A DNA stretch of 64,000 nucleotides, from positions 3,392,001 to 3,456,000 of the forward strand of contig OZ243972.1 of assembly GCA_965214705.1 (NCBI GenBank), given 5' to 3'. The notes under the pieces are model-generated. The model made no database searches and had not been told where the DNA came from. It saw only the letters and a program-made list of their open reading frames with translations. This DNA comes from Alphaproteobacteria bacterium. GTDB lineage: Bacteria; Pseudomonadota; Alphaproteobacteria; UBA828. Below are positions 28,238 through 64,000 of the stretch, piece by piece (position 1 is the first letter of the stretch; every line of letters begins with the position of its first letter). A program made the translations under genes and the position numbers.

Positions 28238-28269
28238 CGGGCGGCGCGCGGCGGAATCGGAGGACGGGC

Positions 28270-47607: not shown

Positions 47608-47757
47608 GCGGTGGGCCGGACGCATGGCGGGAATCCATCGGAGCGCCCGCGAGGCAGGGTCCGGCCCGTTGGTGGGCGATCCCGAAGCGAGGCAGGGTAG
47701 GCGGGCGGGGCGCGGCGCTGGTGTCCGCGGCGACAGCGGGCGGCCGGGGGTCCGGCC

Positions 47758-48309
47758 GTGACGGACGGCGAGACGCCTCCCTGGAAGCCTACGCCCCTGT
47801 GGAAGCTGATGGTCGGTCTCCGGCCCTACCGGGCGGCCTACGAGGAACAGGCGGAGCCGCCGGCGTTCGAGGAGGCCGTCTTCCCGGTACGCGTGCAGTC
47901 GGAGGCCGACCTTGCGGCGCGCGAGTCCTGGCGGATCGAGGCTTGGGAGAACCCCTTTGCGCGGGACGGTCCGGCTTCGCCGTTCCTGGCCGGCGAGCCG
48001 ATGCTGGAGGCCGAGGGTTCGGCGGAGGCGACGCCGCTCATGCCGTTTCTCGCGGCCGCGGGCGCGCGCATTGACGGGCTCCGGCTTCTGGACGGAACGC
48101 TGATCGTCAAGATCGAGCAGGACGGGCGCGCGGTCCAGGTCCGGGTGGCGAACGACGGCCCGCTGCTGTCCGGCGGCGGTTTCCGGGTCTGGTGCGATCC
48201 CGGGGCGGATCTGCCGATGACCATGGCCCGGCTGGCCGCGCTGTTGAGCGTCATGGGCGGTCCGGCCCCTCGGCCAGGGTGGGGGCGGTGGGCGAGAAAC
48301 GGGAACTGA
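47758..48309 (+). CDS. N-terminal part of an FseA-like transcriptional activator (DUF6499-like)
   Basis: LWKLMVGLRPYRAAY resembles the 'AWxFLRRNPxYRxxW' motif and SWRIEAWENP resembles 'WGLxxxEDP'; immediately followed by a DUF2285-like frame. Confidence 0.55.
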   Translation: MTDGETPPWKPTPLWKLMVGLRPYRAAYEEQAEPPAFEEAVFPVRVQSEADLAARESWRIEAWENPFARDGPASPFLAGEPMLEAEGSAEATPLMPFLAAAGARIDGLRLLDGTLIVKIEQDGRAVQVRVANDGPLLSGGGFRVWCDPGADLPMTMARLAALLSVMGGPAPRPGWGRWARNGN

Positions 48310-48311
48310 CG

Positions 48312-48509
48312 ATGGCGCTGGCGCTGAACCGGGCGAAGGTGGCGTCGCAGCGCGAGCTGGCGATCGGCTGGTGGGGCCTGGACGAGGTCGAGAAGCACTG
48401 GGCCACGAGCGACTGGATGCGCACCCGGGTGCGCTACCGGCTGGAGGCGGCGGCCGGGATCGAACGCAGCCGCCGGGAGGGCGGCTCCTCGGAGAGGGAC
48501 GGCGGCTGA
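48312..48509 (+). CDS. DUF2285-like (RovC/FseA C-terminal) DNA-binding domain, in the -1 frame relative to the upstream ORF
   Basis: ELTMALAL...ASQRELAIGWWGLDEVEKHWATSDWMRTRVRYRL resembles DUF2285 'ALD...ASxREIAxxLFGxxxVxxxW...R.RVRRL'; this frame is open from 48192. Confidence 0.6.
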   Translation: MALALNRAKVASQRELAIGWWGLDEVEKHWATSDWMRTRVRYRLEAAAGIERSRREGGSSERDGG

Positions 48510-48617
48510 CGGCGGCGATCCTTTCCGGGCGGGCACGCGGCGAGGACGGGCCGCCTCGTCGTCCGGGGAGTGCCGGCCGCCTCGACCGTGCCCGGCAGCC
48601 GGCGCCGGGAGCGGCGG

Positions 48618-49241
48618 CTACCGGACAATTCCCTGTTTCCGCGCCGTCTCCATCGCAAGGCTCTCCGAAGCATCGAGGAATGCGAACAGCGCGCTGAGGT
48701 CGTCGATGTAGTGCTGCCATTCACGCCCGGCGGCATGTTCCCAGGCGTACCGCTTTCTCCACAGTTCCACGTCGTCGTCCATATAGGCGAAGACGTCCGC
48801 GAGGCTTTGCAGCGGCCGGTTCACGGGGCCTTCCGGCACGGCGGGATCGTCGGTGCTCAGGAACGCGACCAGGGTGAAGGGATATTCGGCCGCGGCCTGC
48901 CCGTAGAGCCGCTCCAGCCCGGCTCCCGTGGAAACCCCGTGCGCGCCGAACAGTTCGTGGAGCCGGGCGAGGCGATGCCCGTCGCGGCCTGCCGGGGGTG
49001 TGACGCCGTTCAGGCGCAGGAGGCACTTCAGCCGGAGCTCCAGGGCGATCGCGAGATTGAAATGGCTGGCCGTCTTGAGGGACTCCCACACGGTGTGCGA
49101 CGGCCAGCCCGATGCGCCGTCCACCGGGGAGAGGTCTCCGCCCCTCGCCCCGAGCCTGGCGATTTCCCGCTCGGTCAGCGACGCGGACTGCCGGAAGGCC
49201 CGGGCGTCGCCGATCAGCCTGAGGAACTGCACGCCGTTCAT
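48618..49241 (-). CDS. Hypothetical protein, HEPN-like fold
   Basis: FNLAIALELRLKCLL...GHRLARLH...WRKRY pattern typical of HEPN-family helices; downstream of and co-oriented with the TA pair. Confidence 0.5.
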   Translation of the reverse strand: MNGVQFLRLIGDARAFRQSASLTEREIARLGARGGDLSPVDGASGWPSHTVWESLKTASHFNLAIALELRLKCLLRLNGVTPPAGRDGHRLARLHELFGAHGVSTGAGLERLYGQAAAEYPFTLVAFLSTDDPAVPEGPVNRPLQSLADVFAYMDDDVELWRKRYAWEHAAGREWQHYIDDLSALFAFLDASESLAMETARKQGIVR

Positions 49242-49271
49242 CGATCCGCCTCGGCCGGTTTCGGGTGAGCG

Positions 49272-49721
49272 CTAGCGATACGCGGACGCGCGCCTGGCCG
49301 GGCGCGCCGCGGCATTCCCGCTCAGCACGTAGAGATCGGGGAGCGGCAGCGCGAAGCCGCCGCTCCAGCCGGCTCCGTCATTGCCGGCCGGCGTGTCCGG
49401 ATCCCGGTCGGCCCCCAGGGGGCGAAGCCGGAGGCCGAGGGCGTTCATGACGCCGACCACGGTCGCGAAGCCGGGATTGCCGTCGCCGGAAAGCGCCTTG
49501 TAGAGACTCTCCCGGCCCAGTCCCGTCTTTGCCGCGACGGCGGTCATCCCTCTGGATCGAGCGACGTCTCCGAGCGCCGCCGCGATGAGGCGCGGATCGC
49601 CGTCCTCGAACGCCGCTTCCAGGTAAGCCACGACGTCGTCGAGGTCCTCGAGATGGTCCGCCGCATCCCAGGGGCGGGTCTTCGCCCGTGCCGCATCCGC
49701 GCGGGTTCGCGACTCCTTCAT
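49272..49721 (-). CDS. Addiction module antidote (HI1420-like HTH antitoxin)
   Basis: PWDAADHLED...YLEAAFEDGDP...ALGDVARSRGMTAVAAKTGLGRESLYKALSGDGNP; start overlaps the toxin stop. Confidence 0.9.
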   Translation of the reverse strand: MKESRTRADAARAKTRPWDAADHLEDLDDVVAYLEAAFEDGDPRLIAAALGDVARSRGMTAVAAKTGLGRESLYKALSGDGNPGFATVVGVMNALGLRLRPLGADRDPDTPAGNDGAGWSGGFALPLPDLYVLSGNAAARPARRASAYR

Positions 49722-50026
49722 CGGTCTTCCCCTTTCACCAGTTCCCGGGCGAGGCCGCGCGCCCGTTCTATGTCGTGGCGCTGGGTCGCCTTGTCGCCGC
49801 CGGCCAGCAGCACGGCCGTTGCGCTGTCGACACGACAGAAATACACGCGGTAGCCCGGCCCGTAGTCGATCCGAAGCTCCGAGACGCCGCCGCCGACCGG
49901 CCGCACATCGCCCGGGTTGCCCAGCGACAACCGGTGGATGCGGATGAGGATCCGCGATCGCGCCTGCCTGTCGCGAAGTTTCCGGAACCAGGTGTCGTAC
50001 GCATCGGTCTGGCGAACTTCGACCAC
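49718..50026 (-). CDS. Addiction module killer (HI1419-like RelE/ParE toxin)
   Basis: WFRKLRDRQARSRILIRIHRLSLGNPGDVRPVGGGVSELRIDYGPGYRVYF...LLAGGDKATQ; GTG start at 50026. Confidence 0.92.
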   Translation of the reverse strand: MVEVRQTDAYDTWFRKLRDRQARSRILIRIHRLSLGNPGDVRPVGGGVSELRIDYGPGYRVYFCRVDSATAVLLAGGDKATQRHDIERARGLARELVKGEDR

Positions 50027-50032
50027 CGGGCG

Positions 50033-50061
50033 AATGTATCCCACACGATACAATATGGCAA
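50033..50061 (-). promoter_or_regulatory. Sigma70 promoter with overlapping palindromic operator for the TA operon (leaderless mRNA likely)
   Basis: Minus strand TTGCCA-N17-TACATT with GTG 6 nt after the -10; dyad TGTATC-N6-GATACA at 50035-50052. Confidence 0.75.
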
Positions 50062-50269
50062 CGCAGCGCTCATTCGGGAAGGTCCGCGAGCGGCCTTCCG
50101 CCCGGCGTGGCGGCACGATCCTCGGATGAGGCGATCGCGCCGGGTTTGTGCGCCCGGCCTGCCGCGGACGCCCGGCAGGACACCGCCCTCCCCGGTTTCG
50201 CGCGCCCGGCGATTCGGCCCGCAGGAGTCCCGTCCGGGCCGCGGTGGCGTCTCCCCGGACCGTTCGGTG

Positions 50270-50297
50270 CGCGAATTGGCCGGCCGGCCGGTTCGCA
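50270..50297. promoter_or_regulatory. FseA-box-like inverted repeat upstream of the rdfS-like gene
   Basis: cGCGAA-N16-TTCGCa; matches in spacing and at 5/6 bases per arm the GGCGAA-N16-TTCGCC box I recall for the Mesorhizobium ICE rdfS promoter. Confidence 0.6.
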
Positions 50298-50300
50298 GCT

Positions 50301-50340
50301 CAGGCGCTCTCAGGCGTCGTGAGGCGTCGTGAGGCGCCAT
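50301..50340. repeat. Four imperfect 10-bp direct repeats (SAGGCGYYVT)
   Basis: CAGGCGCTCT CAGGCGTCGT GAGGCGTCGT GAGGCGCCAT, followed by an inverted repeat GGGAGGA...TCCTCCC at ~50349-50376. Confidence 0.85.
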
Positions 50341-50484
50341 GAGCCGGGGGGAGGATTTTTCGCGAATTTTCCTCCCTGCCGCGGCGCGCGCGTCTTCGTT
50401 TCGATGGCCGCGCATGGGCGCCCGGCAGTCGGCGGGCGCCACGGAGTTCGGAGGCCCCGGCAAGGGTCCGGGCGGGAGTGGAAG

Positions 50485-50763
50485 ATGGCGGACGACACGA
50501 AATACCTGTCGACGCGCAAGGCGGCGAAGCATCTCGGCCTGTCGCCGCGCACGCTCGACCGCTTGCGGGTGAGCGGCGGCGGACCGGTCTACCACCTGTT
50601 CGGCACGGCGGTGCGCTACCTGGCCGAGGACCTGGACGAGTGGTCGAGGACGCGGCGGCGGCGCTCGACCTCGGACGACGGCTCGGGCCCGCGGCCCGGG
50701 CCGGCTGCTCCGGCCCCCGGATCCAGTCCGGGGCAGGACTCCGGGCCGGGGGCCGCCCGATGA
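50485..50763 (+). CDS. rdfS: RdfS/AlpA-like winged-HTH excisionase (recombination directionality factor)
   Basis: YLSTRKAAKHLGLSPRTLDRLRVSGGGPVY...VRYLAEDLDEW...RRSTSD; the HTH_17 pattern and STSD tail are typical of RdfS homologues. Confidence 0.8.
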   Translation: MADDTKYLSTRKAAKHLGLSPRTLDRLRVSGGGPVYHLFGTAVRYLAEDLDEWSRTRRRRSTSDDGSGPRPGPAAPAPGSSPGQDSGPGAAR

Positions 50764-50936
50764 GCGGCCGGGAGCGGATGCGGGCGGCCGCCGCCGTGGC
50801 GGCGCTGACGACCGGCGACACCACGTTCGGCGATCGGCTCGACACGGTGGAGAACATCGTCGGCGGCACCGGCGACGGCCGCGCGGCTGAGCTCGCCGTC
50901 GGCGGCGCCGTGGCCGGCACGGCGATCGTCCGATGA
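50760..50936 (+). CDS. Small ORF (58 aa), possibly a shortened conjugative pilin (TraA-like) remnant
   Basis: ATGA-coupled at both ends; TTGDTTFGDRLDTVENIVGGTG...LAVGG loosely resembles pilin N-termini but lacks long hydrophobic helices. Confidence 0.35.
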   Translation: MSGRERMRAAAAVAALTTGDTTFGDRLDTVENIVGGTGDGRAAELAVGGAVAGTAIVR

Positions 50937-52690
50937 GCGAGACCCGGCGCCAAGCGATCACGGGCCGGATTCCGCGGGGCATTGCCGCGCACCTTCGACG
51001 GTGCGCGGGAGGCGCGGAAGCGATGCCGGCAGGACGATATTCCAAGGTCGTCGAGAGCCGTGCGGCGGGACGCCGGGCACAGGCTCGGCGCTCCCGGCGC
51101 TTCGGCTGGAGCCCGGCGGCGCTCGTCCTTTGCGCGGTTCTGCTCTCGGGCTGCGGCGCGGCGGTGTGGGAGGACGCGCGCAGCGAGACCGACGAGGCGG
51201 CGCACGACGTCGCCGCACTGAAAGAGGCGGCGGAGCGGCCGCGTTTCTCCGCCATCCGGGTGATCGAGCGGCGCCCCTGGCTCGGGCTTGCGCGTCAGGA
51301 CGCACGGGAAGAAGACGTCCTGCCGGCGCGCTTCCTGGAGCCCGGCGCCGTGACCCTGCCGCTGGCCGGGATCGGCGAAGCGTCGATGCTGGCGCGGCGC
51401 GTCGAGGCGGCGACCGGGATCCCGGTGCGCTTCATCGGCAAGGCGCATGCGGGCGAAGACTCCTCCCGCACCGACTCCGCTGCAGGAGTGTCTCCCGCAG
51501 GCTTCGGCATCGACCGTCTCTCGCCCGACGGCGGCGTCTGGACCGGGCCTCTCGATGCGCTGCTCGACGCCTGGACGGAGCCGGCCGGCTACGCCTGGGC
51601 CTACGACGCTGAGGAAGGCGCGATCGGGATCGTGCGCCGCGAGGCGGTGGCGTTCCGCATCCACGCGCTTGCCGGCAGGCAGCGCTACGAGGCGTCCGGG
51701 TCCACCGACGACGGTGTCTCGGGGGGCGACGAGGGCGGCGGCGTGTCGACGCGCCAGTCGATCATGGCCGAGACCGACTACGACCCCTGGCCCGAGATCG
51801 AGGCGCAGGCGGCGGCGCTCGCGGGGCCGGGCGCGTCGGTGACGGCGGCGCCTTCGAGCGCCTCTCTGCTGGTCAGCGGCACGCCCCGCGACGTGGAGCG
51901 GGTGCGGGCCTGGCTCTCGTGGCTCAACCGCGAGGTGCTGCGCCCGGTCACGCTTTCCGTGCACGTCTACGCGGTGCGCATGGAGCGCGAGGCGGACTAC
52001 GGCTTCGGCCTCGCCGCCCTGGTGAAGGAGCTGTTCGGAACCTCCGCCGAGCTGGCGGTGACCCCGGACTCGGTGGCGATCGTGCGGCCGTCGGCTGCGG
52101 TCGGCGACACGCTCGCGGCCACGGTGCGGGCGCTGAGCCGGGCGGGGACGGTCTCGCGGGTGCTGTCGGCGGACATCCCTTCGCTCAACGGCAAGCCCGC
52201 GCAGTTCTTCGAGCTCTACAAGGAAGCCTACGTCAAGGAGCAGCGGACCACGGCGGGCGAGGGCATCGCCCAGACCGAGATCGTGCCGGGCACGGTCTCC
52301 TCGGGGTTCGCGGCGAGCTACGTCCCGCGCATCACCGGGCCGGGCGAGGTGCTGGTGCGGCTGTTCGCGAGCCTGCGCGACCGTCCGGTGTTCCGCGAGG
52401 TCGGCGGATCGGGCACGGCGATCCAGCTTCCGGCCTATGCCAGCCGGGCGGTGCAGGTGACGCAGCGGATCCGGCGGGGAGAGACCCTGCTGGTGACGGG
52501 GTTCTCCACCCGGCGCTCGGAAGCGGACGGCTCGGGGACCTTCTCGGAAGACGTGCCCCTTCCCGGCGGCGCACGCCGGGGCGCGCTGGCGCGGTCCGAG
52601 CAGGTGCTGCTGGTAAAGGCCGAGATCGGCGCGCCGCTGGGCATTGCCGAGTCCAGGGAGCGCACCGATGGCTCGGGAGAGCCTCTGTGA
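50933..52690 (+). CDS. pilN: Type IVb pilus outer-membrane secretin (PilN/BfpB-like lipoprotein)
   Basis: Lipobox VLLSG|C; WTGPLDALLD...GYAW; LVSGTPRDVERVRAWLSWLN; SLNGKPA, IVPGTVSSGF, IQLP, GETLLVTGF. Start may be ATG 51023. Confidence 0.8.
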   Translation: MSETRRQAITGRIPRGIAAHLRRCAGGAEAMPAGRYSKVVESRAAGRRAQARRSRRFGWSPAALVLCAVLLSGCGAAVWEDARSETDEAAHDVAALKEAAERPRFSAIRVIERRPWLGLARQDAREEDVLPARFLEPGAVTLPLAGIGEASMLARRVEAATGIPVRFIGKAHAGEDSSRTDSAAGVSPAGFGIDRLSPDGGVWTGPLDALLDAWTEPAGYAWAYDAEEGAIGIVRREAVAFRIHALAGRQRYEASGSTDDGVSGGDEGGGVSTRQSIMAETDYDPWPEIEAQAAALAGPGASVTAAPSSASLLVSGTPRDVERVRAWLSWLNREVLRPVTLSVHVYAVRMEREADYGFGLAALVKELFGTSAELAVTPDSVAIVRPSAAVGDTLAATVRALSRAGTVSRVLSADIPSLNGKPAQFFELYKEAYVKEQRTTAGEGIAQTEIVPGTVSSGFAASYVPRITGPGEVLVRLFASLRDRPVFREVGGSGTAIQLPAYASRAVQVTQRIRRGETLLVTGFSTRRSEADGSGTFSEDVPLPGGARRGALARSEQVLLVKAEIGAPLGIAESRERTDGSGEPL

Positions 52691-54048
52691 GCGTCATCGA
52701 CGTCGGCGGGCGGGCTTACGCGGCCGGGCTCTACTGGCTGGAGCGCGGCGGCGCGGGGGCCACCGCGCGGACGGCGCGCAGGCTGGACCGGCCGTGGTGC
52801 GTGCATCGCGGCGAGCGCACCGGCTTCGCCGCCGACGATACGGGGGAGAGCCCCGAAGGTCTTCCGGCGCTGGCGCTGGCGCTTCTCGCGTGCATCGAGG
52901 GCGCCTTCTGGATGGCGCTGCTCGAGGGGGATGAGGACCCGTCCGGCGGGCGCCGCTACGCGCTGGTGAAGGCGCGGGGCGGCACGGTGCTGGCCGACGG
53001 GGACGAGGTCTTCGAGGACCGGGCGGCGGCGCTGGCCGCGTTCGAGCGGGCGCGGCCGCTCGGCTGGTCGCTGTTCGCCACGCCGGGATTGCAGGACGAG
53101 GTTGGTGGCGCGGGCCGGGAGGTAGCCGCGCTGGATCCGGCGGCGCTGGCCGAGGCGGCCGCCGCCGCCGGGGATACGATCGCGCTCGCGCGCGCGGTCT
53201 CGCGGCGGCGCTGGCTGCGCCCGGTTGCGGCCGCGGCGGGCGTTGCCGTGCTGGTTGCGATCGCCGTGCTGTGGTTCGAGCGCGACGCGCTGATCGCCTG
53301 GCTGAGGGGGCCCGGGACGGGTGCGGTTGCGCCAACGGTGCGGCCCGATCCCGTAGTGGCGGTGGCGGTGGACGGCGCGGCGCTGATCGCGGCCTGCCGG
53401 GAGGCGCTGATCGCCCATCCCCCCTTCCTGCCGGCATGGCGGATCGAGCGCATCGAGTGCGCGGCGCGGTTTGCCGATCCCGAGCTGAGCGGGTTGGTGC
53501 CGGAGCTGGCGGGCCGGGCGGCGCTGCTGGTGCGCTGGGGGCTGAAGGACGGCCACGCGGAGGCGGTGCAGCGCCGCGTCGCGGAGAAACATCTGGCGCG
53601 CTGGCACGCGGCGGCGGTGGCCGGCGCAAGGGCCTGGGCGGCGGCGCCGCTCGGGCCGGTGCTGCGCGTCATGGGCACTCGTGCCGGCGACGCGCCCGCA
53701 CCGGCATTCGTCGAGCTGCGCCGCGAAGTGGACAGGGCCTTCGGCGCGGGCGGCGCCCGCGTGGGCTACGCCCGGGGCGCGGGCGGCGGATGGACGGTGC
53801 GCATCGACGAATACGGGCCGCTCGGCCGGCTCGGGCCGCTCGCGGGGGGCGTCGATGGCCTGGAGATCGTCGCGCTCGCGCGCGGCGAAAGCGGCCCCTG
53901 GCGGCTGGAAGGGCGGCCGGCGGCGCCGGAGAGGGTCGCGGCCTCGCGGCTGAAGGCCCTCGGGGTGACCGGCAGACCGGCCGCGGCAAGTAGCGGACTG
54001 AACCAACTGGAGAAGGAGGCGGAGGATGGAACGCAGAGGCACGAGTGA
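52687..54048 (+). CDS. pilO: Type IVb pilus accessory protein (PilO-like)
   Basis: VIDVGGRAYAAGLYW N-terminus, VLADGDEVF, single central TM, 'ACREAL...LPAWRIERIEC'; position after the secretin. Confidence 0.7.
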   Translation: MSVIDVGGRAYAAGLYWLERGGAGATARTARRLDRPWCVHRGERTGFAADDTGESPEGLPALALALLACIEGAFWMALLEGDEDPSGGRRYALVKARGGTVLADGDEVFEDRAAALAAFERARPLGWSLFATPGLQDEVGGAGREVAALDPAALAEAAAAAGDTIALARAVSRRRWLRPVAAAAGVAVLVAIAVLWFERDALIAWLRGPGTGAVAPTVRPDPVVAVAVDGAALIAACREALIAHPPFLPAWRIERIECAARFADPELSGLVPELAGRAALLVRWGLKDGHAEAVQRRVAEKHLARWHAAAVAGARAWAAAPLGPVLRVMGTRAGDAPAPAFVELRREVDRAFGAGGARVGYARGAGGGWTVRIDEYGPLGRLGPLAGGVDGLEIVALARGESGPWRLEGRPAAPERVAASRLKALGVTGRPAAASSGLNQLEKEAEDGTQRHE

Positions 54049-56907: not shown

Positions 56908-57980
56908 TGGCTGCGGTTCGCATGCCCTGCCGGCTCCCGGTCCTGGTGCTGCTTGCCGCGTTGACGACGGCGGCGGCTTGGGCGGGCGATGCGCCGGTGG
57001 CGCCGTTCCCCGGCACGAGTGTCTCCGGTACGGACGTCGAAGGCAGGCAAGAGAGCCTGCCGGAGCAGGCGCCGGAGGCCTCGGACGAGGCGGCGTCGGA
57101 AGCCGGAGCGGAAGCGGTGGGTGTGGCCGTGCCGGCGGTCGATGCGGGTCCTTCGGAGGCTGCGGTGCCCGACGGCAGCATGGCTGCGGAGAAACCGGCA
57201 GCGCCGGCGGGCGGCAGCCGCCTGCTGCGTGCGCTGGCCGATCTGCCGAAGACAGTCGGTCGGGCGCGGAGCGATGTTCCGGGCGACGTCACCCGCCCCG
57301 GAATCCCCCGGGTGTTTGCGGCCGAGGGATGTCCGCGCGCGCTGCTGCGCCGCCTGCTGGCGGGCGCGGCCGGCGAGGCGGATGCGCTGTCCGCGCTCGG
57401 GATCGAGCGGGAGATCCTCACCCTCTGCCGCGAGCGCCAGGAGATCGTCGCTGGGCTGTTGGAGACCGAGGCGCGGCTGAGCGAGCTGCGCGAGGCCGGG
57501 CGAGGCCCGGAGCCGGAGGCGGCGGCCTCGGCGGCGAGCGCGGTCCCGACGCCCCGGGTGGAAGCGGCTGGCGAGGCGCCAGCTATTGCAAGGGCTGCCG
57601 CGTCGCCCCTGCGTGCGGCGCTCGGCGGCGCGGCAGAGAAAGCGAACGAGGCAGACACTCCTGCCGGAGACACTCGTGCCGGAGGTCCTCAGGGCGGAGA
57701 ACCGCGTGGCACGGAGCCGCGGAGTCCGGCACGCGTGTCCCCGGCACGAGTGCCTCCGCGCTACGCGTGGTTCTCGATCATCGGCACCGCGGGCGCGCTC
57801 CGTGCGGGCGTCACCGACGGGACAGGCGTGTGGTTCGTGCGCGAGGGCGACCCGCTGCCGGGCGGCGCGACGATCGCCGCAATCGCGGGAAGGCCGCCGG
57901 CCGTCCGGGTGACGGGCGCCGGAGAGAGTGGGGAAGCAACCCTGCTGCCCTTCCGCGCGAGGCCGGGAGGAGTCCCGTGA
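56907..57980 (+). CDS. pilP: PilP-like type IVb pilus biogenesis protein
   Basis: Signal peptide, low-complexity/coiled-coil middle, C-terminal SIIGTAGALRAG...VREGDPLPGGATIAAI beta domain; position before the ATPase. Confidence 0.55.
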   Translation: MAAVRMPCRLPVLVLLAALTTAAAWAGDAPVAPFPGTSVSGTDVEGRQESLPEQAPEASDEAASEAGAEAVGVAVPAVDAGPSEAAVPDGSMAAEKPAAPAGGSRLLRALADLPKTVGRARSDVPGDVTRPGIPRVFAAEGCPRALLRRLLAGAAGEADALSALGIEREILTLCRERQEIVAGLLETEARLSELREAGRGPEPEAAASAASAVPTPRVEAAGEAPAIARAAASPLRAALGGAAEKANEADTPAGDTRAGGPQGGEPRGTEPRSPARVSPARVPPRYAWFSIIGTAGALRAGVTDGTGVWFVREGDPLPGGATIAAIAGRPPAVRVTGAGESGEATLLPFRARPGGVP

Positions 57981-59707
57981 GGAGTCCCGGGCAGTTGGTT
58001 GGCCAGTGGCTCGGGGACTGGCGTGGGCGGGCGCGTGCGGCGGCCGAAGCTGCGATCGGGCGGCTGGACGGAGGCCGCGGCGGAGCCGGGAAGGCGCCGG
58101 CGCCGGGCGGAGACGCTCGCGCCGGTGACGCTCGCGGCGGGGACGCCCGTGCCACCGACCTGCCGATCGACAGCAGCGCGATGGACGCGCGCTTCCGCCG
58201 GCTCTGCGCCGTCTTCGCCGACGGGCGCTGCCTGATCGCCGAAGGCTACGAGCCCGACGACCGGCTGCGCCTCGACCTGGTGAAGCTGCGCGAGGCCGGA
58301 ACGATCCCGGCGGTGCTCACGGAAGAGAGCGTGACGCTGGAGGAGATCGCGGCGCTCTGGCGGGTGCATGAGGGCGGCTCCGCGCCGGACGGCGGCGGCG
58401 CGGCCACGCGCCTGCGCTCGCTGCTGAAGGACGCCGCATCGGCGAAGGCCAGCGACGTGGTGTTCGAGCAGGGCCCGGACGCCTGCAAGGTGTTCTGCAT
58501 CGTCAACGACCGCAAGCTGCCGCTGTGCCCGGCCCTCACCCCCGAGGAGGGCCGCCGGGTCATGGGCTTCCTCTTCCACTGCAAGGACGAGGGGAGCTCG
58601 CAGACCAGCTACCGCCGCGCCTCCTTCCAGGGCTTCTCGATCCGCGCCGGCGGCGCCGTGCCCCTGCCGGGCGGCATCTCGGCGCTCCGTTGCGAGCGCG
58701 GGCCTCACGACCCCGACGCCGACCACCTCTTCGCGCGCCTCTTCTACACCGACCGCCTGGATCCGGACACGACGCTGGAAGGGCTGGGGTTCAGCGAGCA
58801 GGAGGCCGCGCTGTTCGCCGAGATCCGCATGGCGATGCAGGGCGGGGTGTTCATCGGCGGGCGCGCCGGCGACGGCAAGAGCACCACGCTCGCCGTCAAC
58901 CTGGCGCTCCAGATGGCCGAGATGGCGGGCCAGCTCAACCTGGTGACGCTCGAGGACCCGGTCGAGTACCGCATCCCCGGCGCGATCCAGATCGCGGTGC
59001 CCACGTCGGGCGCCGGCGAGACCCGCGCCGGACACTTCAAGGAGGCCCTGATGCACTTCTGCCGGGTGCATCCGGCGTCCGGCATGGTCTCGGAGATCAG
59101 GGACGCCGACGCCGCCCGGCAGGTGCTCCAGTGCGTCGACACCGGGCACCAGATCTGGACCACCATCCACGTCCACAACGCCAACGCGATCCCCTTCCGG
59201 CTGATCGACATGGGGGTGGGCGCGGCCGAGGTGGCGAAGCCCGGCAACGTGGCGCTGCTGATGAAGCAGACGCTGTTGCCGAAGCTGTGCCAGGCCTGCG
59301 CGCTGGACCGCCCGGCGGGCGGGCGTGCGGTGCCGGAGGGGCTGATTTCGCGCCTCGGCGGGATCGAGGGGCTGCGCTTCAGGAACGCAAAGGGGTGCGT
59401 CGAGTGCCGGCGGAAGGGCGGCGGCAAGGTCTCGGCGCGGGCCTGGAACGGCTATCTCGGCCAGACCGCGATCGCGGAGTCCATCCGCCCGGACGCGGGC
59501 TACCTGCGCTTCGTCCGCGCGGGCGATCCCCTCGGCGCCTGGGCGTACTGGCGAAGCGAGATGGGCGGCGTTCCCATCGGGGTGCGCATCCGCGCCATGG
59601 TGAAGCAGGGCGCGGTCGATCCCTTCGACGCGCTGCTCAAGGGCGGAGCGGGAGAGCACGAGGCGCAGGCCGATCCCGTGCCCGACGATCCCGGAGACAC
59701 CGCGTGA
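57977..59707 (+). CDS. pilQ: Type IVb pilus assembly ATPase (PilQ; GspE/PilB family)
   Basis: ASDV, Walker A GRAGDGKSTT, TLEDPVEY, SEIRD, TGHQIWTTIH, CxxC...CxxC. Confidence 0.88.
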   Translation: MRSPGQLVGQWLGDWRGRARAAAEAAIGRLDGGRGGAGKAPAPGGDARAGDARGGDARATDLPIDSSAMDARFRRLCAVFADGRCLIAEGYEPDDRLRLDLVKLREAGTIPAVLTEESVTLEEIAALWRVHEGGSAPDGGGAATRLRSLLKDAASAKASDVVFEQGPDACKVFCIVNDRKLPLCPALTPEEGRRVMGFLFHCKDEGSSQTSYRRASFQGFSIRAGGAVPLPGGISALRCERGPHDPDADHLFARLFYTDRLDPDTTLEGLGFSEQEAALFAEIRMAMQGGVFIGGRAGDGKSTTLAVNLALQMAEMAGQLNLVTLEDPVEYRIPGAIQIAVPTSGAGETRAGHFKEALMHFCRVHPASGMVSEIRDADAARQVLQCVDTGHQIWTTIHVHNANAIPFRLIDMGVGAAEVAKPGNVALLMKQTLLPKLCQACALDRPAGGRAVPEGLISRLGGIEGLRFRNAKGCVECRRKGGGKVSARAWNGYLGQTAIAESIRPDAGYLRFVRAGDPLGAWAYWRSEMGGVPIGVRIRAMVKQGAVDPFDALLKGGAGEHEAQADPVPDDPGDTA

Positions 59708-60756
59708 TCGCCCGGCTCGCCATGCCGCTGCGCCGCGTTCATGCCGCGCTGGTGATGGGGCGGAAGGCGCGCGTCGACTGCTTCCAGACCGTGGCCGACC
59801 TGCTCGCGGCAGGGTTCGAGCTGGAGCGCGCCCTCGGCGTCGCCGCGCGGGCCATGGGTGGGGGCGCCCGGGCCCGCCTGATCGCGTCGTGGCGGGCGGC
59901 GCTGCCGGCCGGAGGCTTCGCGGACGCCATGGCCGCCTCCGTGCCGCCGGCCGAGGCGATGATATTCGAGGCCTACGGAAGGGTGGACGCCGGGCGGCTG
60001 TTCGCCGCCGCTGCGCGCATCGCGGAGCTGCGCGAGCGCCAGATCGCCGCGGTGCGGAAGGCGCTCGCCATGCCGCTCCTGCTGGGAGTGGCGGTGGTCA
60101 CCATGCTGTGGGCCGCCGGCGGCTGGTTCGTGCCCGTGCTCGAAGGGGTGGTTCCGCCCGAGCAGTGGGGCCCGGCGGCAGGCCTCTTCCGGGCCGCCTC
60201 GTCCTGGCTCTACGCGCAGCCGCTGGCCTTTGCGGGGCTCTGCGTGGCCGTCCTCGTGCCGCTCGGGCTCGCCACGGTGCTGTGGACCGGGCCGGGGCGG
60301 ACCGCGCTCGACCGCATCGCGCCCTTCTCGCTCTACCGCACCGTCACCGGCTCGGCCTTCCTGTTCGTGGTGCTCGAGATGCTGGGCGCGGGCCTCGACC
60401 TCAACGACCGCGCCTTCGAGGACCTCAAGCGCCGCGCCGGCCCCTACGCCCGCCACCGCATCGGCGCGATCCAGCGCCACATGGTGCGGGGCGCCGGGCT
60501 GGGCCGCGCCATGGCGCTGGCCGGCCACGGCTTCCCCGACCCCTCGCTGGTGCCGGTGGTGGCGGCCCTCGACGGCGTGCCCGGCTGGGAGGCGAAGCTC
60601 TCCGGCTTCGTCGCGCGCTGGGTGGACCGCTCCGAGGACCTGCTGCGGACCCGCGCCGCCGGGCTCAACGCGGCGCTGCTGATCCTGGTCACGCTGAGCG
60701 TCGCCGCCGGCATCGACGCCATGTTCTCGATCCTGCAACAGGCCGGACGGTCATGA
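59704..60756 (+). CDS. pilR: Type IVb pilus inner-membrane platform protein (PilR; GspF family)
   Basis: Three TM segments; WTGPGRTALDRIAPFSLYRTVTGSAFL; GLGRAMALAGHGFPD. Confidence 0.85.
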   Translation: MIARLAMPLRRVHAALVMGRKARVDCFQTVADLLAAGFELERALGVAARAMGGGARARLIASWRAALPAGGFADAMAASVPPAEAMIFEAYGRVDAGRLFAAAARIAELRERQIAAVRKALAMPLLLGVAVVTMLWAAGGWFVPVLEGVVPPEQWGPAAGLFRAASSWLYAQPLAFAGLCVAVLVPLGLATVLWTGPGRTALDRIAPFSLYRTVTGSAFLFVVLEMLGAGLDLNDRAFEDLKRRAGPYARHRIGAIQRHMVRGAGLGRAMALAGHGFPDPSLVPVVAALDGVPGWEAKLSGFVARWVDRSEDLLRTRAAGLNAALLILVTLSVAAGIDAMFSILQQAGRS

Positions 60757-60776
60757 CCCAAGCGAAAGGAGACATC

Positions 60777-61427
60777 ATGAGAGACACTCGTGCCGGAGAA
60801 ACCGCAGGTTTCGGGCCTTCCGGCCTCCCTTCTTCCGGCCTCGCGACAGGCGGCGCCCGGCGATCGATACGGCGTTTCGGCGCCAGGCGCTGGCGGCGCG
60901 GCTTCAGCCTGTTCGGCGTGCTGCTCGGGCTCGGCCTCGCCGCCGTGGTGATCGTCGGCGCCGTCGGCACCTACAACGCGGCCCGGGAGGCCGCCAACCG
61001 GAGCGCCGCGCTGACGCTGCTGAGCCAACTCCGGGCCAACGTCGAGGCGGCCTTCGCCGGCGCACCGAGCTACGGCAACAATGCCGACCTGGTGCCGGCC
61101 ATCGACCGGCGCGGCGGCATCCCCGGCGGCGCCCGCGTGGCGGCCGGCAGCGGCGTCGAGATCCGCCATCCCTTCGGCGGGGAGGTTACGGTCACCGGCG
61201 GGCCGGGCGGGATCACCAACCGCTTCCGCATCACCTTCGAGGACGTGGACGACGCCATCTGCGCGGCGCTGGGCGACGCTTTCGCCGGGCGCAGCCGCGC
61301 CCGCGCCGGCCTCGTGCAGATGACGATCAACGGCACCGGGCTCGCCTCGCCCGTGACCAACGCCCAGGTCACCGCCAACTGCGACGACGGCGATGCCGAC
61401 AACGACATCGGGTTCACTTTCGGATGA
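60777..61427 (+). CDS. pilS: Type IVb major pilin (PilS-like)
   Basis: RBS AAGGAG before ATG 60777 (alternative start 60753); long leader, RRRG|FSLFGVLLGLGL hydrophobic helix, IRHPFGGEVTV, two C-terminal Cys. Confidence 0.82.
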   Translation: MRDTRAGETAGFGPSGLPSSGLATGGARRSIRRFGARRWRRGFSLFGVLLGLGLAAVVIVGAVGTYNAAREAANRSAALTLLSQLRANVEAAFAGAPSYGNNADLVPAIDRRGGIPGGARVAAGSGVEIRHPFGGEVTVTGGPGGITNRFRITFEDVDDAICAALGDAFAGRSRARAGLVQMTINGTGLASPVTNAQVTANCDDGDADNDIGFTFG

Positions 61428-62782
61428 CGGCCGGAGGCCGAAGACCCTCGGGCTCGGGGTCGAAGGGCATGGATGCGCGGCAGCCGACGTCCAGGCGGAG
61501 ACCCGTGCCGGAGAAACAGCGCAGGCGCGGGGCGTACCAGGGCGTTCCCCTGTACCGGGGCGTTCCCCCGTTCCGGCTTATCCGCCTGCGCCTGATGAAG
61601 CTGAGGCCGCTCCCGTGGCGGGGCCGGGGCACGCGCGGTCGCGACCGGCGCGGTCGCGACCGGTGCGGCGCGGGCGCGCTACTCGGCGTGCTGCTGCTGG
61701 GAGCGCTGGCGGGCGCGGCGCTGGCAGTTCACTACGAGACGCGGGCGGCCGAACGTGTGCAGGCCCTCGACCGCGCCGCGGGCCGCGTGTTCGCAGGCTG
61801 GGTGCATGCGGCGCACCGGGCGACCCAGGCCCACGCCGACGCCTTCGAGACGGCGCTCGAGACCCAGGTGGGTATCGTGCTCACCGTGGCGCGGTTGAGC
61901 GCGCTGGGCGCGGCGCCGCCGGACCTGCCCGCGCGTCCGGGGCGCAACGCCGCCATGACGCTCGGGGTCATCCCGGACGGCACGTCCCGGCGGACTCCGA
62001 TGGCGTTCGGGGTGCTTGAGCCCGCCGCGTCGTCGCGCCCCACGGCGATGCGCGAGGGCGCGCTGGAAGCGGGCCTCGCGGCGGTGGCGCCCGGCGGGGG
62101 CGCGCTCATGGAGGGGCACAGGCCGGCGATCGAGGCGGCGCTCGGCCGGATCCTCGGCGCGGACGCCCTCTGGGTCACCTCGGACCGGGGAATTCGGTAC
62201 CGCGAGCGCGCGCTCCATCGCCGCGCGCAGCCGGGTCGGCCCTGGCTCAACCGCATGGAGACCACGCTGGAGATGGCCCCGCCCGGCGCCGCGGACCCGG
62301 CGCACCCCGCGCGGCGGAACATAACGGATGCGGGTGCGGTGGACGCAGTGTCGGCCGAGGCCGGGACCGACGTGGCCGCGGGCGGGGACGCAACGGCGGG
62401 CGGCCGCGCGGATGCGGCGGGGCTGAGGGCGGAGACGGTCGAGGCGGGCGATCTCGCGGCGTCCGCGTTCGCGGTGACCGCCGATCTCGTGGTGGGCGCC
62501 GCCGTCACCGGGCGCCTCGCGGCCGACCGGGTGACGGCGACCGGGCCTCTGGAGGCCGGCGCTGTTCGCAGCACGGGCGCGCTCGATGCGGCGGCGCTGT
62601 CGGTGGCCGGGGACGCGGCGGTCGAAGGGGCGGCGGGGGCACGGGCGGTTGCCAGCGAGACTCTCGACGTGACGCAGTCGCTGAGCGGATCGCGGACCGC
62701 AGCCGGCGGTGTCTACGGCCCCGACGCCACGATCTCCGGCCTGCTCACCGTCGGCAGCTGCGCCGGCTGCGAGGGGCAGTAG
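61424..62782 (+). CDS. PilV-like minor pilin/adhesin 1
   Basis: G|ALLGVLLLGAL hydrophobic N-terminus; ALHRRAQPGRPWLNRMETTLEM (PilV constant-region motif); A/G/V/T-rich repeat stalk; ends TVGSCAGC. Start uncertain (possibly ATG 61595). Confidence 0.65.
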   Translation: MTAGGRRPSGSGSKGMDARQPTSRRRPVPEKQRRRGAYQGVPLYRGVPPFRLIRLRLMKLRPLPWRGRGTRGRDRRGRDRCGAGALLGVLLLGALAGAALAVHYETRAAERVQALDRAAGRVFAGWVHAAHRATQAHADAFETALETQVGIVLTVARLSALGAAPPDLPARPGRNAAMTLGVIPDGTSRRTPMAFGVLEPAASSRPTAMREGALEAGLAAVAPGGGALMEGHRPAIEAALGRILGADALWVTSDRGIRYRERALHRRAQPGRPWLNRMETTLEMAPPGAADPAHPARRNITDAGAVDAVSAEAGTDVAAGGDATAGGRADAAGLRAETVEAGDLAASAFAVTADLVVGAAVTGRLAADRVTATGPLEAGAVRSTGALDAAALSVAGDAAVEGAAGARAVASETLDVTQSLSGSRTAAGGVYGPDATISGLLTVGSCAGCEGQ

Positions 62783-62785
62783 GCG

Positions 62786-63952
62786 ATGAGACGCGCCGCG
62801 GCAAGCACGCGCGACATCCGGGAATGGGCCTTGCGGCCCGGTCGGGGACGGAGCCTGCGGCTCACTCGCGGTCTCGGCCTCTTCGAGGGTCTGCTGGCGC
62901 TGGGGCTGCTCGGGCTGCTGGTGCTGGGGGCCACGGTGTTCTTCGAGACGCAGGCGCTGGAGAAGCGCGGGCGCCTCGCGGCGGTGCAGCTCTCGGTGCT
63001 GGCGGAAGCGGCCGCGTCGTACGCCCACAGCCGCTTCCCCGCCCTGCTGACGCAGGCGCAGGCGGGACCGTCGGAACTCGCGTTGGCGACGCTCAAGGCG
63101 GCGGGATCGCTCACGGACGATTTCTCCGAGGTCGATGCGCTCGGGCGCGCCTACCGGGTGCTGATGCTGGCGGCCGGGCCGGACGCCTTCGACCTGCTGG
63201 CGACGGAGACCGTGGATGCCGGCGACACCGTGCGCCCGGCGGCTGCGCTGCTGGAGGCGGCGGGGCCTCGCGTGGGCCTCGCCGGCCCCTCGCGACTCTC
63301 GGGACCAACGGTGGACGCCGATCTCGCGGCCTTCCGGGCGGCCTTTTCCGGAGCGCCCGTGGAGGGGGCGCTGGCGGCGCTCAGGCGCTTCGACCACGGC
63401 AGCGTCTACGGCGATGCGCTCTACCGCGTCGCGATCCCCGGCTTCGCCGAGGCCAACCGCATGGAGGCCGATCTCGACATGGCGGGCAACGCCATCGAGG
63501 GCGCGGGCACGATCGAGGCGGCGAGCCTGGACGTGGAGAGGGATCTCACTGCGGGCGGCGATTTCACGGTGACCGGCGATCTCGTCGTGGGCCGCGCCGT
63601 GCGCGCCTCGGGCACGGTCGAGGCGGGAGGGGCGATGACGGCCGCGGCGGCGCGCATATCGGGGCCGGCCTCGGCGGCGTCGATGACGGTCACGGGCGCG
63701 GTGCGTGCGCAGACCGTGGAGGCGGTGAACCGGGTCGAGGCCGCGTCCATCGGCGCCGCCGGCGCGGTGGCCGCCGGCAGCGCGCGGCTGGGCGGCCTCG
63801 ACGCCCGGTCGGTGACCGCCCGGACGATGACAGCGGATTCGGTCGCCGCCGCCTCCGTCACGGCCACGCGGGTGCAGGCGGGCACGCGGCTCGATGCGGT
63901 CGACGCCGGCATTTCGCGCTTGGTCGTCGGGCGCTGCCAGGGGTGCCGGTGA
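62786..63952 (+). CDS. pilV: PilV-like minor pilin/adhesin 2 (shufflon N-terminal-type constant region)
   Basis: RG|LGLFEGLLAL prepilin motif; LKAAGSLTDDF; ALYRVAIPGFAEANRMEADLDMAGN; ends VVGRCQGC. Confidence 0.75.
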   Translation: MRRAAASTRDIREWALRPGRGRSLRLTRGLGLFEGLLALGLLGLLVLGATVFFETQALEKRGRLAAVQLSVLAEAAASYAHSRFPALLTQAQAGPSELALATLKAAGSLTDDFSEVDALGRAYRVLMLAAGPDAFDLLATETVDAGDTVRPAAALLEAAGPRVGLAGPSRLSGPTVDADLAAFRAAFSGAPVEGALAALRRFDHGSVYGDALYRVAIPGFAEANRMEADLDMAGNAIEGAGTIEAASLDVERDLTAGGDFTVTGDLVVGRAVRASGTVEAGGAMTAAAARISGPASAASMTVTGAVRAQTVEAVNRVEAASIGAAGAVAAGSARLGGLDARSVTARTMTADSVAAASVTATRVQAGTRLDAVDAGISRLVVGRCQGCR

Positions 63953-64000
63953 TGCGGGGGCCGGCAAGGAAGAGGAAGGGCGGGGCCGCGATGGCGTTGG

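Follow-up and report, generated by a model that had tools for sequence, protein, structure and literature searches.

The 64,000-nt stretch of alphaproteobacterial DNA studied here (G000:C1:3392001-3456000; referred to as the window, to which all coordinates refer unless a locus label is given) carries, on one strand and in this order, an FseA-like activator gene, an RdfS-like gene and the operon for a type IVb (IncI-like) pilus, as proposed in an initial annotation made from the sequence alone. The region from 27 to 64 kb, together with about 25 kb beyond the window, is fairly probably an integrated conjugative element of the IncI/Dot-Icm type (mating-pair formation type MPF_I) with a type IVb thin pilus, and we give similar preference to the view that its control head is an FseA/RdfS-type switch. 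The element is a hybrid of two sources and is probably decaying. It was compared with same-genome copies at C1:1.836, C1:1.309 and C1:1.652 Mb (P1836, P1309 and P1652, respectively) and at C3:0.680 Mb (P680), as well as with further loci (L-numbers) and genomes (G-numbers); W is the window's own locus, and L014 and L016 come from two further genomes. Genes were called by the G+C content of third codon positions (GC3), because spurious open reading frames (ORFs) are plentiful at the base composition of the window, in which the G+C content climbs to 71-76% from about 28 kb onward. The features are listed in Table 1.

The adjacency of rdfS and pilN was found to be general. In the window's own genome an rdfS-like gene is located directly upstream of pilN at all four pilN loci, that is, at three besides the window's own, and at three of the four fseA is also found upstream. 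The two genes abut at C1:1.652 Mb and C3:0.369 Mb, and are about 200 nt apart at C1:1.309 Mb. Close homologues of PilN (58-62% identity) are encoded at six loci in G054, G202 and G238, which represent two other families; at five of these an rdfS-like gene (55-59% identical) is located 150-200 nt upstream in the same orientation, and at the sixth the rdfS-like gene stands beside a pilN that is broken by an inversion. This tally also took in an unpublished genome, G088, on which no claim rests. No PF10074 (DUF2285) domain adjoins the rdfS-like-pilN loci of G054, G202 and G238, where a weak tblastn match was seen 1.3 kb upstream in L110. The order fseA, inverted repeat, rdfS recurs at P1309, P1652, P1836, L014, L016 and L045. 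As judged from gene order, an RdfS-family gene heading a thin-pilus/MPF_I operon is a recurrent and native arrangement, and the adjacent fseA is a feature of the genus.

In the window's own copy the join of rdfS to pilN is a recombination scar present in real DNA. For the left arm, the related element is the one at C1:1.82-1.86 Mb: the integrase pair (27040-29396) is 95.5% identical in DNA to the pair of the F-type element at C1:1.82 Mb (blastn), the end of the giant repeat-protein gene 67-69%, fseA 81.7% and the promoter-rdfS region 76.9%. In P1836 and L014 a small ORF comes after the same head, and behind it are traL, traE, traK, traB, traV, traC, traU, traN, traF and traH, which constitute an F-type system. 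L016 also has this head, including a toxin-antitoxin insert, and there the traL position is occupied by an ORF of 97 aa. The right arm, on the other hand, is 75-84% identical over about 38 kb, starting at 50987, to the element at C1:1.31 Mb. That element possesses an fseA of canonical appearance, a box, an rdfS-like gene, a spacer of about 200 nt that is richer in A+T, and pilN, all of its own. The two arms meet inside the small gene orf58, which is 69% identical over 29 aa to a 90-aa ORF before traL in P1836, with DNA identity ending at 50922; since only the first part of the pre-traL ORF is matched, orf58 is taken as a truncated gene remnant. Error-free contigs span the junction in four runs of two studies (X1, 50601-51580; X3, 50598-51580; X5, 50645-51085; X6, 50867-51146), and a misjoin of the P1836 and P1309 copies is ruled out by the fact that neither arm is identical to its relative.

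As a result of this recombination only about 36 nt of P1309-type sequence is left before the likely pilN start (ATG 51023), so that the pilus operon would have lost any promoter of the native spacer and would have to depend on upstream transcription. This predicted loss is the strongest argument that the switch is wired directly to the pilus operon, as the initial annotation had put it, and the wiring would be a product of recombination rather than ancestral design. The right arm also bears marks of decay. Compared with P1309, it contains insertions of 3 kb and 2.2 kb (window-equivalent 72024-75006 and 77260-79421), and insertion sequence (IS) elements split a 359-aa TrbI/DotG-like gene and a 1032-aa gene, both of which are continuous and coding in P1309. 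Because two genes of the type IVB secretion system (T4BSS) are thus interrupted, the window's copy is probably no longer self-transmissible.

The split genes count against a functional conjugative element, as do two results of the look beyond 64 kb that the initial annotation had advised: the comparison of 24.8-27.1 kb with 90 kb downstream for att direct repeats gave only chance-level matches of 14-17 nt, and the single relaxase seen, TrwC (L007 8860-12618, minus strand), lies outside the backbone common with P1309. The type IV secretion system (T4SS) was found there, as an MPF_I set. These observations raise the alternative that the locus is a dead relic, in which the recombinant join and the IS decay have left no regulated excision or transfer and the rdfS-pilN wiring is a functionless accident. 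The location of the junction inside a truncated gene, and the short duplicated overlaps, in P1309 coordinates, at the two IS-split genes agree with such a relic. However, every ORF of the head and of the pil cluster between 47758 and 63952 is open and has the GC3 typical of coding sequence, the identical junction was recovered in runs of two studies, and the lost functions could be supplied in trans by three other MPF_I systems of the genome. Moreover, the native loci share the rdfS-like-pilN order, which argues that the order itself was selected. We consider the relic the less probable reading, while a serious one. A further reading, which together with the frameshifting clade described below we hold at not quite even confidence, is that the int-fseA-rdfS head is a portable cassette, which can be recombined onto F-type or IncI-type/thin-pilus machineries, and that the window catches one such swap.

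The activator had been described as DUF6499/DUF2285-like, and this description stood up in indirect comparisons and failed in direct ones. Neither ORF-A nor ORF-B matched a Pfam family at E<=0.01 or at E<=10, or any NCBIfam family, and in six-frame searches of the own genome with PF10074 (E<=1; Pfam now calls this family RovC_DNA-bd) and with PF20109 the locus was not matched. Hence, direct searches with hidden Markov models gave no DUF2285 match for 48192-48509, and it is the profile-profile comparison that rescues the family call. The AWEFLRRN motif of DUF6499 is degenerate in ORF-A (LWKLMVGLRPYR / LWKLMVGLRPYRAAY), and equivalents of the Arg37-Asp210 contact residues are not evident in the window's activator. 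All of these results speak against an FseA-type protein.

Three lines of evidence point in the opposite direction. First, ORF-A shares 76% identity with the P1836 copy and 40-44% with the N-terminal parts of P1309, P1652 and P680, in which the adjoining frame is PF10074-positive above cut-off and which have AWKFLQRN-type and WGLLAWEDP motifs, with PF20109 scores below cut-off. Second, the alignment of ORF-B with its six closest relatives matched an alignment of 14 C-terminal reference domains, 13 of them PF10074-positive, with 97.9% probability and an E value of 6.2e-13 over 56 columns (hhalign). Third, the AlphaFold2 (AF2) model of ORF-A (39-row alignment; pLDDT 88.5, pTM 0.83) gave a single Foldseek match in the PDB at E<=0.001, which was RovC (6xz5; E 8e-6, TM 0.53, 157 columns), a structural relative of FseA (PMC10359603). 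On the strength of paralogue homology, profile-profile match and predicted RovC-like fold, 47758-48509 is assigned as a divergent FseA-family activator gene, in which the AWEFLRRN motif and the direct DUF2285 match both fail. Homologues of ORF-A form 102 clusters, nearly all of 165-205 aa and ending near 180 aa, without a precomputed Pfam domain. FseA-like genes are expanded in the window's genus (e.g., in G046, G039 and G045), with up to 13 matches per genome and five in the own genome, and an ORF-A search of 49 genomes of the order gave matches in 14, all of the window's genus, and in none of 13 other genera.

The frameshift published for FseA is a +1 shift at UUUC involving tRNA-Phe, with an efficiency of 4-13% (PMC4755241), and a +1 frameshift beside the WGL motif is found in about 61% of 4709 homologues (PMC10359603). 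In the window's copy this +1 UUUC site is absent, and the WGL-equivalent region is in frame. Instead of the fused gene assumed in the initial annotation, the DUF2285-like part is split from ORF-A in the -1 frame, as it is in all five own-genome copies. Of 34 loci fetched from the genus, 27 had both parts adjacent, and the register between them was -1 in 24, +1 in two and 0 in one. The method was checked on 27 PF10074 loci, drawn from a sample of 401 genomes across the class, in which the DUF6499 and WGL motifs were located. Here the published arrangement, +1 directly after WGL, was recovered in 18 loci, while two were in frame or unclear, one had no motif, and six were -1. Two of the -1 loci belong to the own genome, and the other four (G133, G202, G238 and G054) to three other families. 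Members of the -1 clade are in frame across WGL, and their register changes some 80 codons further on, in the linker that joins the middle domain to DUF2285.

The site of the change is marked by a homopolymer run, which begins at a fixed place, 24-27 nt (8-9 codons) after a conserved L/F/I-W codon. This anchor pattern matched 14 distinct loci; the run was CCCC(C)T in nine of them and A6 in three, and in two, one of which has CCCT, it was not caught by the pattern. The anchor was missing from eight more loci, the window's own among them, and two others were duplicates. Nine loci, with protein identity down to about 40%, share an invariant CCGG-CCCT core, and a T-ending proline codon is unusual in genes with about 90% G+C in third positions. 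The sites in other families are GGTCCGGCCCCTC in G054 and G238, CCGTCCCCCGGG with a C5 run in G202, and CAAAAAG with an A5 run in the low-G+C genome G133. In L035 and G133 the -1 frame opens just two codons 5' of the A-run. No credible case of an in-frame fusion was found among the 102 homologue clusters, of which the four longest were inspected; these (P0084, P0093, P0098 and P0101) were considered as cases of natural fusion in frame and rejected, since each of them looks like a gene call with a shifted frame. At the window's site the P-site tRNA-Pro would slip from CCU (48268-48270) back to CCC at C-CCU (48267-48270), and at the A-run sites tRNA-Lys would slip on A-AAA; alternatively, the frame might be changed by RNA polymerase adding one base. 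The full-length activator of about 250 aa would be made only upon such a -1 event, so that it would stay scarce.

Two observations weigh against recoding. The sequence GTG GGC GA, preceded by a G-rich stretch, is kept in the seven closest loci as a possible independent start of ORF-B, and therefore two polypeptides are possible. Also, RNAalifold on the recoding region gave 31 pairs with a positive covariation term, and thus no support for a conserved stimulatory structure; a G-quadruplex formed by the G-tracts 3' of the site is speculation. In the alternative without recoding, ORF-A and ORF-B would be translated separately, ORF-B from GTG 48288 by translational coupling, and the products would either associate non-covalently, or ORF-B would serve as a QseM-like, DUF2285-only antiactivator of ORF-A. 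Consistent with this explanation, the 102 clusters of ORF-A homologues carry annotations as separate proteins of about 180 aa. On the other hand, the GTG is replaced by GGG in L025 and L029, although both retain the CCGGCCCCT core, and in L035 and L099, where just two codons of the -1 frame are open ahead of the A-run, helix 1 is not preceded by any ATG or GTG, apart from one at its very start. The fixed -1 register at a homopolymer run in most genus loci is what recoding predicts, and no bona fide DUF6499 without an adjoined DUF2285 is reported in the available text of PMC10359603. We consider separate translation, in either variant, unlikely.

Programmed recoding is the explanation that we prefer for the frame change. 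We tentatively suggest, at slightly less than even confidence, that a widespread FseA-type clade has replaced, or never had, the +1 UUU-C site and relies on a programmed -1 shift at one quadruplet (C-CCU or A-AAA) before DUF2285, in addition to having the portable int-fseA-rdfS head. The clade was seen in four alphaproteobacterial families, and, with the same reserve, it would represent independent convergence on a recoding-limited synthesis of the master switch. The nine mentions of programmed ribosomal frameshifting in the main text of PMC10359603, as available, all concern +1. The supplements of the FseA and RdfS papers may nevertheless contain -1 variants or linkage to other types of T4SS.

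The operator proposed in the initial annotation, a GCGAA-N16-TTCGC dyad, exists as placed, but it is not the conserved element. The 481-nt upstream region of the window's locus holds three distinct dyads of this class, and by our own estimate about 0.9 per region is expected by chance for a 5-mer at one fixed spacing. Of the four closest loci only the window keeps the N16 spacing, the halves being 7 to 26 nt apart or altered in P1836, L014 and L016, and the dyad was rejected as an operator since its spacing is not conserved. Eighty bases past it, and 110-135 nt before the rdfS-like gene, is the inverted repeat GGAGGA-N14-TCCTCC, whose arms covary: they are GGAGAA/TTCTCC in P1836, L014 and L016, and GGAGAT/ATCTCC in P1309 and L045. 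Of 17 regions preceding rdfS-like genes, six have perfect GGAGNN-N14-17-NNCTCC repeats (W, P1836, P1309, L045, L014 and L016), and L035 and L026 have imperfect ones. Other FseA subtypes (L030, L044 and P1652) have different repeats in the same place, and L049-L051, three regions without an adjacent fseA, have no GGAGNN/NNCTCC repeat.

The P1309 repeat, at -92 to -58, is close in position to the published FseA box, in which the proximal hexamer is 62-67 nt before the start codon, and the hexamers, 15-16 bp apart, adjoin the -35 element (PMC10359603). The arms in the window's group are GGAGNN, 14-17 nt apart. Downstream of the repeat, the window and P1309 both have CTGCCG and, after another 17-18 nt, a TTCNNT hexamer (TTCGAT after 17 nt in the window); the two could form the -35 and -10 elements of a weak activator-dependent promoter. 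The strict inverted-repeat pattern had four real matches in the genome, as compared to 23-33 in shuffles. The loose pattern had 43 and is thus not rare, which weakens the case for the box; the pattern alone is unspecific, and therefore only its conserved place and covariation count. On these two grounds GGAGNN-N14-17-NNCTCC is, as a predicted site, a better FseA-box candidate than the GCGAA dyad. A box-like sequence, CGGGGGGAGG...CTCCCTCCTGC, is also found at G000:C1:3628171 (+), 185 kb downstream of the window's box.

The RdfS-like protein, in contrast to the activator, was recognized directly, in agreement with the initial annotation. It scored 33.7 bits against PF12728 (cut-off 27 bits), and its best phmmer match among PDB sequences was RdfS itself (8dgl, E 3.6e-14), residues 5-69 aligning with RdfS 17-81, which is the whole winged helix-turn-helix (wHTH). 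The alpha1 helix (RdfS residues 3-12) is absent, with just four residues preceding the aligned wHTH; this is no bar to membership, because the helix is confined to the ICESym clade (PMC11963761). The protein is 90% identical to the P1836 copy. By position, its gene heads the pilN..T4BSS genes and is 21 kb away from the integrases; it is followed by the gene remnant and pilN, not by traF-msi107/rlxS, and in P1836 by traL/E/K/B/V/C.

Since HTH_17 is a broad family, and the NCBIfam excisionase models scored below their cut-offs, the protein could instead be a pil/tra transcription factor or an AlpA-like regulator rather than a recombination directionality factor (RDF), with the FseA-like gene regulating something else. 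Such a role would be compatible with the retention of rdfS on plasmids without need of excision (PMC8627217), and with the lack of PF10074 beside the rdfS-like-pilN loci of G054, G202 and G238. It is nevertheless improbable, given that the best match among PDB sequences is RdfS, that the rdfS-like gene stayed with the integrases in the chimera, both being similar to the same donor-type element (90% aa and 95.5% DNA identity), as expected for a cognate pair, and that the fseA-box-rdfS order recurs at six other loci. Very improbable is an artifactual origin of the frame change, by sequencing or assembly error or by homopolymer pseudogene mutation: homopolymer runs are error-prone in long-read assemblies, and this three-contig assembly has 8.7% contamination, yet the register and position are the same in 24 of 27 loci from many assemblies, including fragmented ones, the -1 frame is also present in four other-family genomes and in 102 protein clusters from several sources, and two different run types occur at one codon position.

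In the FseA/RdfS-type switch that we favour, the activator would bind the GGAGGA-N14-TCCTCC box and switch on the weak promoter, the RdfS-like protein would help the tandem integrases to excise the element, and a transcript reading from rdfS into the pilus and T4SS genes would couple excision with synthesis of the mating apparatus.

Variants of the head were seen at other loci. In L011 (G000:C1:1651380-1651977, minus strand) the rdfS-like gene before pilN encodes two tandem HTH_17 domains with a basic linker. In L012 (C3, upstream of 369547), L049, L050 and L051, which have no adjacent fseA, a conserved ORF precedes the rdfS-like gene; it ends in ...PSFV-RLR-G-SPRL-T-D-RAWM..., runs almost into the rdfS-like start, and may encode another head regulator.

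The chain of genes from rdfS to the pilV-like gene, described as unbroken in the initial annotation, is largely so. Overlaps of 4 nt join rdfS to orf58, orf58 to pilN (if it starts at ATG 50933), pilN to the gene at 52687, and the genes at 55690 and 59704 to those before them, and 3 nt separate pilV from its neighbor. By the GC3 calls, and depending on the start codons, pilQ may be preceded by a gap of about 200 nt (57981-58180) and pilS by one of about 160 nt. The former gap is 84% conserved with P1309 and could hold an internal promoter, which would count against a single transcript. On the plus strand of 50485-63952, including the stretch between rdfS and pilN, a scan that is weak at 75% G+C gave neither a sigma-70-like promoter nor an intrinsic terminator. 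The spacing of the genes suggests that rdfS through pilV would be in one transcript.

Among the thin-pilus families, PF00437, PF08805 and PF04917 scored above their cut-offs, while PF00482, Secretin and TIGR02520 were below. In the pilN-like protein, which is 79% identical to that of P1309, both Secretin and Secretin_N were weak, and TIGR02520 (PilN) had an E value of 1.6e-46. The four genes that follow have no Pfam family and are syntenic with P1309 at 77%; a CFI-box-CTERM match was obtained in 54059-55693. Direct Pfam/NCBIfam scans gave nothing for orf58, orf207 and five pil-cluster ORFs. The pilV-like gene has four paralogues in the genome. Past the window follow genes for DotD, TraI, a DotB-like ATPase, IcmT/TraK, DotI, DotH, IS elements, a single-stranded DNA-binding protein (SSB), DotA/TraY and a coupling protein (L006/L007). 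The gene next to pilV, at window-equivalent 64335-65633 (L006:335-1633), has a weak N-terminal Peptidase_A24 domain (21.3 bits as compared to a cut-off of 26.5; window-equivalent 64362-64700), which is in the same place in three paralogous loci, and a C-terminal TcpQ domain; it may encode a fused PilU/PilL-like protein.

Table 1. Coordinates of the features in the window
Feature	Position	Strand	Remarks
Two tandem P4-type tyrosine integrase genes	27038-28237 and ~28290-29460	+	Phage_integrase and Arm-DNA-bind_3; left part of the element
4756-aa repeat protein, cargo	33337-47607	+	Pfam: 9 SWM_repeat, PKD, Big_5, Calx-beta; directly 5' of fseA
ORF-A, degenerate DUF6499-like N-terminus and middle domain of FseA/RovC-like activator	47758-48309	+	183 aa
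Candidate -1 recoding site, CCGGCCCCTCG	48262-48272	+	zero-frame CCG GCC CCT CGG (48262-48273)
ORF-B, divergent DUF2285 (RovC_DNA-bd) HTH domain	48270-48509	+	-1 frame; possible own starts GTG 48279/48288, ATG 48312
orf207	48618-49241	-	no Pfam/NCBIfam family; 77% identical copy in the same place in L016
HigA-like antitoxin	49272-49721	-	PF21716, E 5e-27
HigB/RelE-like toxin	49718 to ~50026/50044	-	Gp49, E 1e-6
GCGAA-N16-TTCGC dyad	50271-50275 and 50292-50296		189 nt before ATG 50485
Inverted repeat GGAGGA-N14-TCCTCC, candidate FseA box	50350-50375		arms 50350-50355 and 50370-50375; CGGGGGGAGGA-TTTTTCGCGAATTT-TCCTCCCTGCC
rdfS-like wHTH gene, putative excisionase/regulator	50485-50763	+	92 aa; HTH_17 (PF12728), E 4.3e-8
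orf58, 5' remnant of the small gene before traL in F-type relatives	50760-50936	+	ATGA overlaps on both sides
Recombination junction, F-type-element head / thin-pilus-T4BSS body	50922-50987		blastn: similarity to P1836 stops at 50922, that to P1309 sets in at 50987
pilN-like secretin lipoprotein	50933-52690	+	start ATG 50933, or ATG 51023 by P1309 alignment; lipobox LLSGC
Four pil-cluster genes without firm family	52687-54048, 54059-55693, 55690-56907, 56865-57980	+	GC3-based calls
pilQ-like T2SSE assembly ATPase	58181-59707	+	PF00437, E 3.8e-34; NCBIfam ATPase families all below cut-offs
pilR-like T2SSF platform protein	59704-60756	+	PF00482, E 6e-5, below cut-off
pilS-like type IVb prepilin	60750-61427	+	start 60750 or 60918; PF08805 (PilS), E 7e-11; Bundlin weak
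pil-cluster gene without family	61424-62782	+	Pfam and NCBIfam scans empty
pilV-like minor pilin, Shufflon_N constant region	62786-63952	+	PF04917, E 2e-12

The body of the element resembles the IncI1 plasmid R64, which likewise has a PilN secretin lipoprotein, PilQ, PilR, PilS and PilV with Shufflon_N, and then Dot/Icm-like genes, the set downstream of the window comprising homologues of DotD, TraI, TraJ, TraK, TraM/DotI, TraN/DotH and TraY/DotA. We take the R64 gene order to match the pil-then-T4SS order of the window. R64 is a plasmid, whereas the window's element is chromosomal and has tyrosine integrases. The pilus and transfer genes of R64 are regulated by the TraB/TraC activators, unlike an FseA/RdfS head. 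No rci or shufflon segments are among the window's called genes, at which no dedicated search was aimed, and the fusion of a prepilin-peptidase-like to a TcpQ-like domain just past the window is another difference from R64. Yersinia RovC, the only significant structural match of the ORF-A model, is 16% identical to it, has its gene in one ORF, and regulates a type VI secretion system rather than conjugation.

Frameshifting by -1 on A-rich runs is known from dnaX and from transposases of the IS1 and IS3 families. The A6 run of the P1309-type copies (ACC AAA AAA G) resembles these slippery runs, while its zero-frame phase differs from A-AAA-AAG, and the window's copy has C-CCU. Also in contrast to those systems, no Shine-Dalgarno-like upstream element or downstream structure is demonstrated at the window-type sites.

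Islands of the PAPI-1/ICEclc family have an MPF_G T4SS and other regulators. They are similar to the window's element in being integrated and in transferring with a PilS/PilV-type pilus (PMC5297154). The closest model of the head is the FseA-PrdfS-RdfS switch of Mesorhizobium ICEMlSymR7A, in which FseA activates PrdfS through an inverted hexamer repeat, and rdfS is the first gene of the conjugation operon (PMC10359603; PMC11963761), heading traF-msi107 next to rlxS on trb-type elements (PMC11963761; PMC8627217). Both systems have a DUF6499-like/middle/DUF2285 activator in two frames (PMC10359603; PMC11963761; PMC4755241) and an inverted repeat upstream of an rdfS-family wHTH gene, which is the first gene of a conjugation operon and not an integrase neighbor. 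They differ in that the ICEMlSymR7A shift is +1 at UUUC after DUF6499/WGL, whereas that of the window is -1 in the linker before DUF2285, in the degenerate DUF6499 motif of the window, and in the linked genes, which are traF-msi107-rlxS with trb (MPF_T) in ICEMlSymR7A and pilN..pilV with an MPF_I T4SS in the window. Counterparts of traR/traI and qseM/qseC of ICEMlSymR7A did not turn up in the window, where no search was aimed at them. The combination of an FseA/RdfS switch with a type IVb pilus operon, which the initial annotation had regarded as new, was not found in the FseA/RdfS literature searched: among the top-ranked matches of a literature search no paper paired DUF2285 with pil terms, and the terms "pilus," "IncI" and "type IVB" are absent from the available text of PMC10359603.

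In print, FseA/RdfS control is tied to trb-type (MPF_T) elements and plasmids and to one +1 frameshift site; what is new here is the linked machinery (MPF_I with a thin pilus, and MPF_F in a sister element), the recoding geometry and the visible cassette swap. If these readings are correct, a switch that heads IncI-like thin-pilus/T4BSS as well as F-type systems would be a general and exchangeable cassette for control of conjugation in Alphaproteobacteria. A second recoding site, working in the opposite direction and at another domain boundary, would point to selection on rarity of the activator and not on one mechanism, and C-CCU would be a new natural -1 site to study. Annotation pipelines miss these activators, the halves being called as separate hypothetical proteins that neither Pfam nor NCBIfam names, which suggests that regulators of mobile elements are under-counted in such genomes.

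Several neighboring features of the element were also noted. A HigBA-like toxin-antitoxin pair on the opposite strand, which the initial annotation did not mention, separates fseA from rdfS. Together with orf207 (48618-50061, minus strand) it is also present at L016:9440-10840 and absent from P1836 and L014. The promoter-like site upstream of the toxin gene (50061-50033), the only sigma-70-like match in 47600-64000, points away from the rdfS promoter region. Upstream, along with the integrases, are a P450 gene and the gene of the giant repeat protein. A similar giant gene precedes fseA in L014, and the 3' part is 67-69% identical to P1836; the protein may be a surface adhesin, either as cargo or in mating. 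Upstream of the fseA at C1:1.31 Mb there is a defence-island-like cluster (L079, G000:C1:1311501-1330000), which encodes an SNF2-type helicase with NOV_C, a DUF1156 methyltransferase-like protein, DUF499 with HEPN, and PIN. Downstream of the window's element are two identical pairs of an IS91-like Y2 transposase and a tyrosine recombinase (L007:13066-15192 and about L007:17686-19974), and further copies, 98.7-100% identical, are located in the P1836 and P1652 regions.

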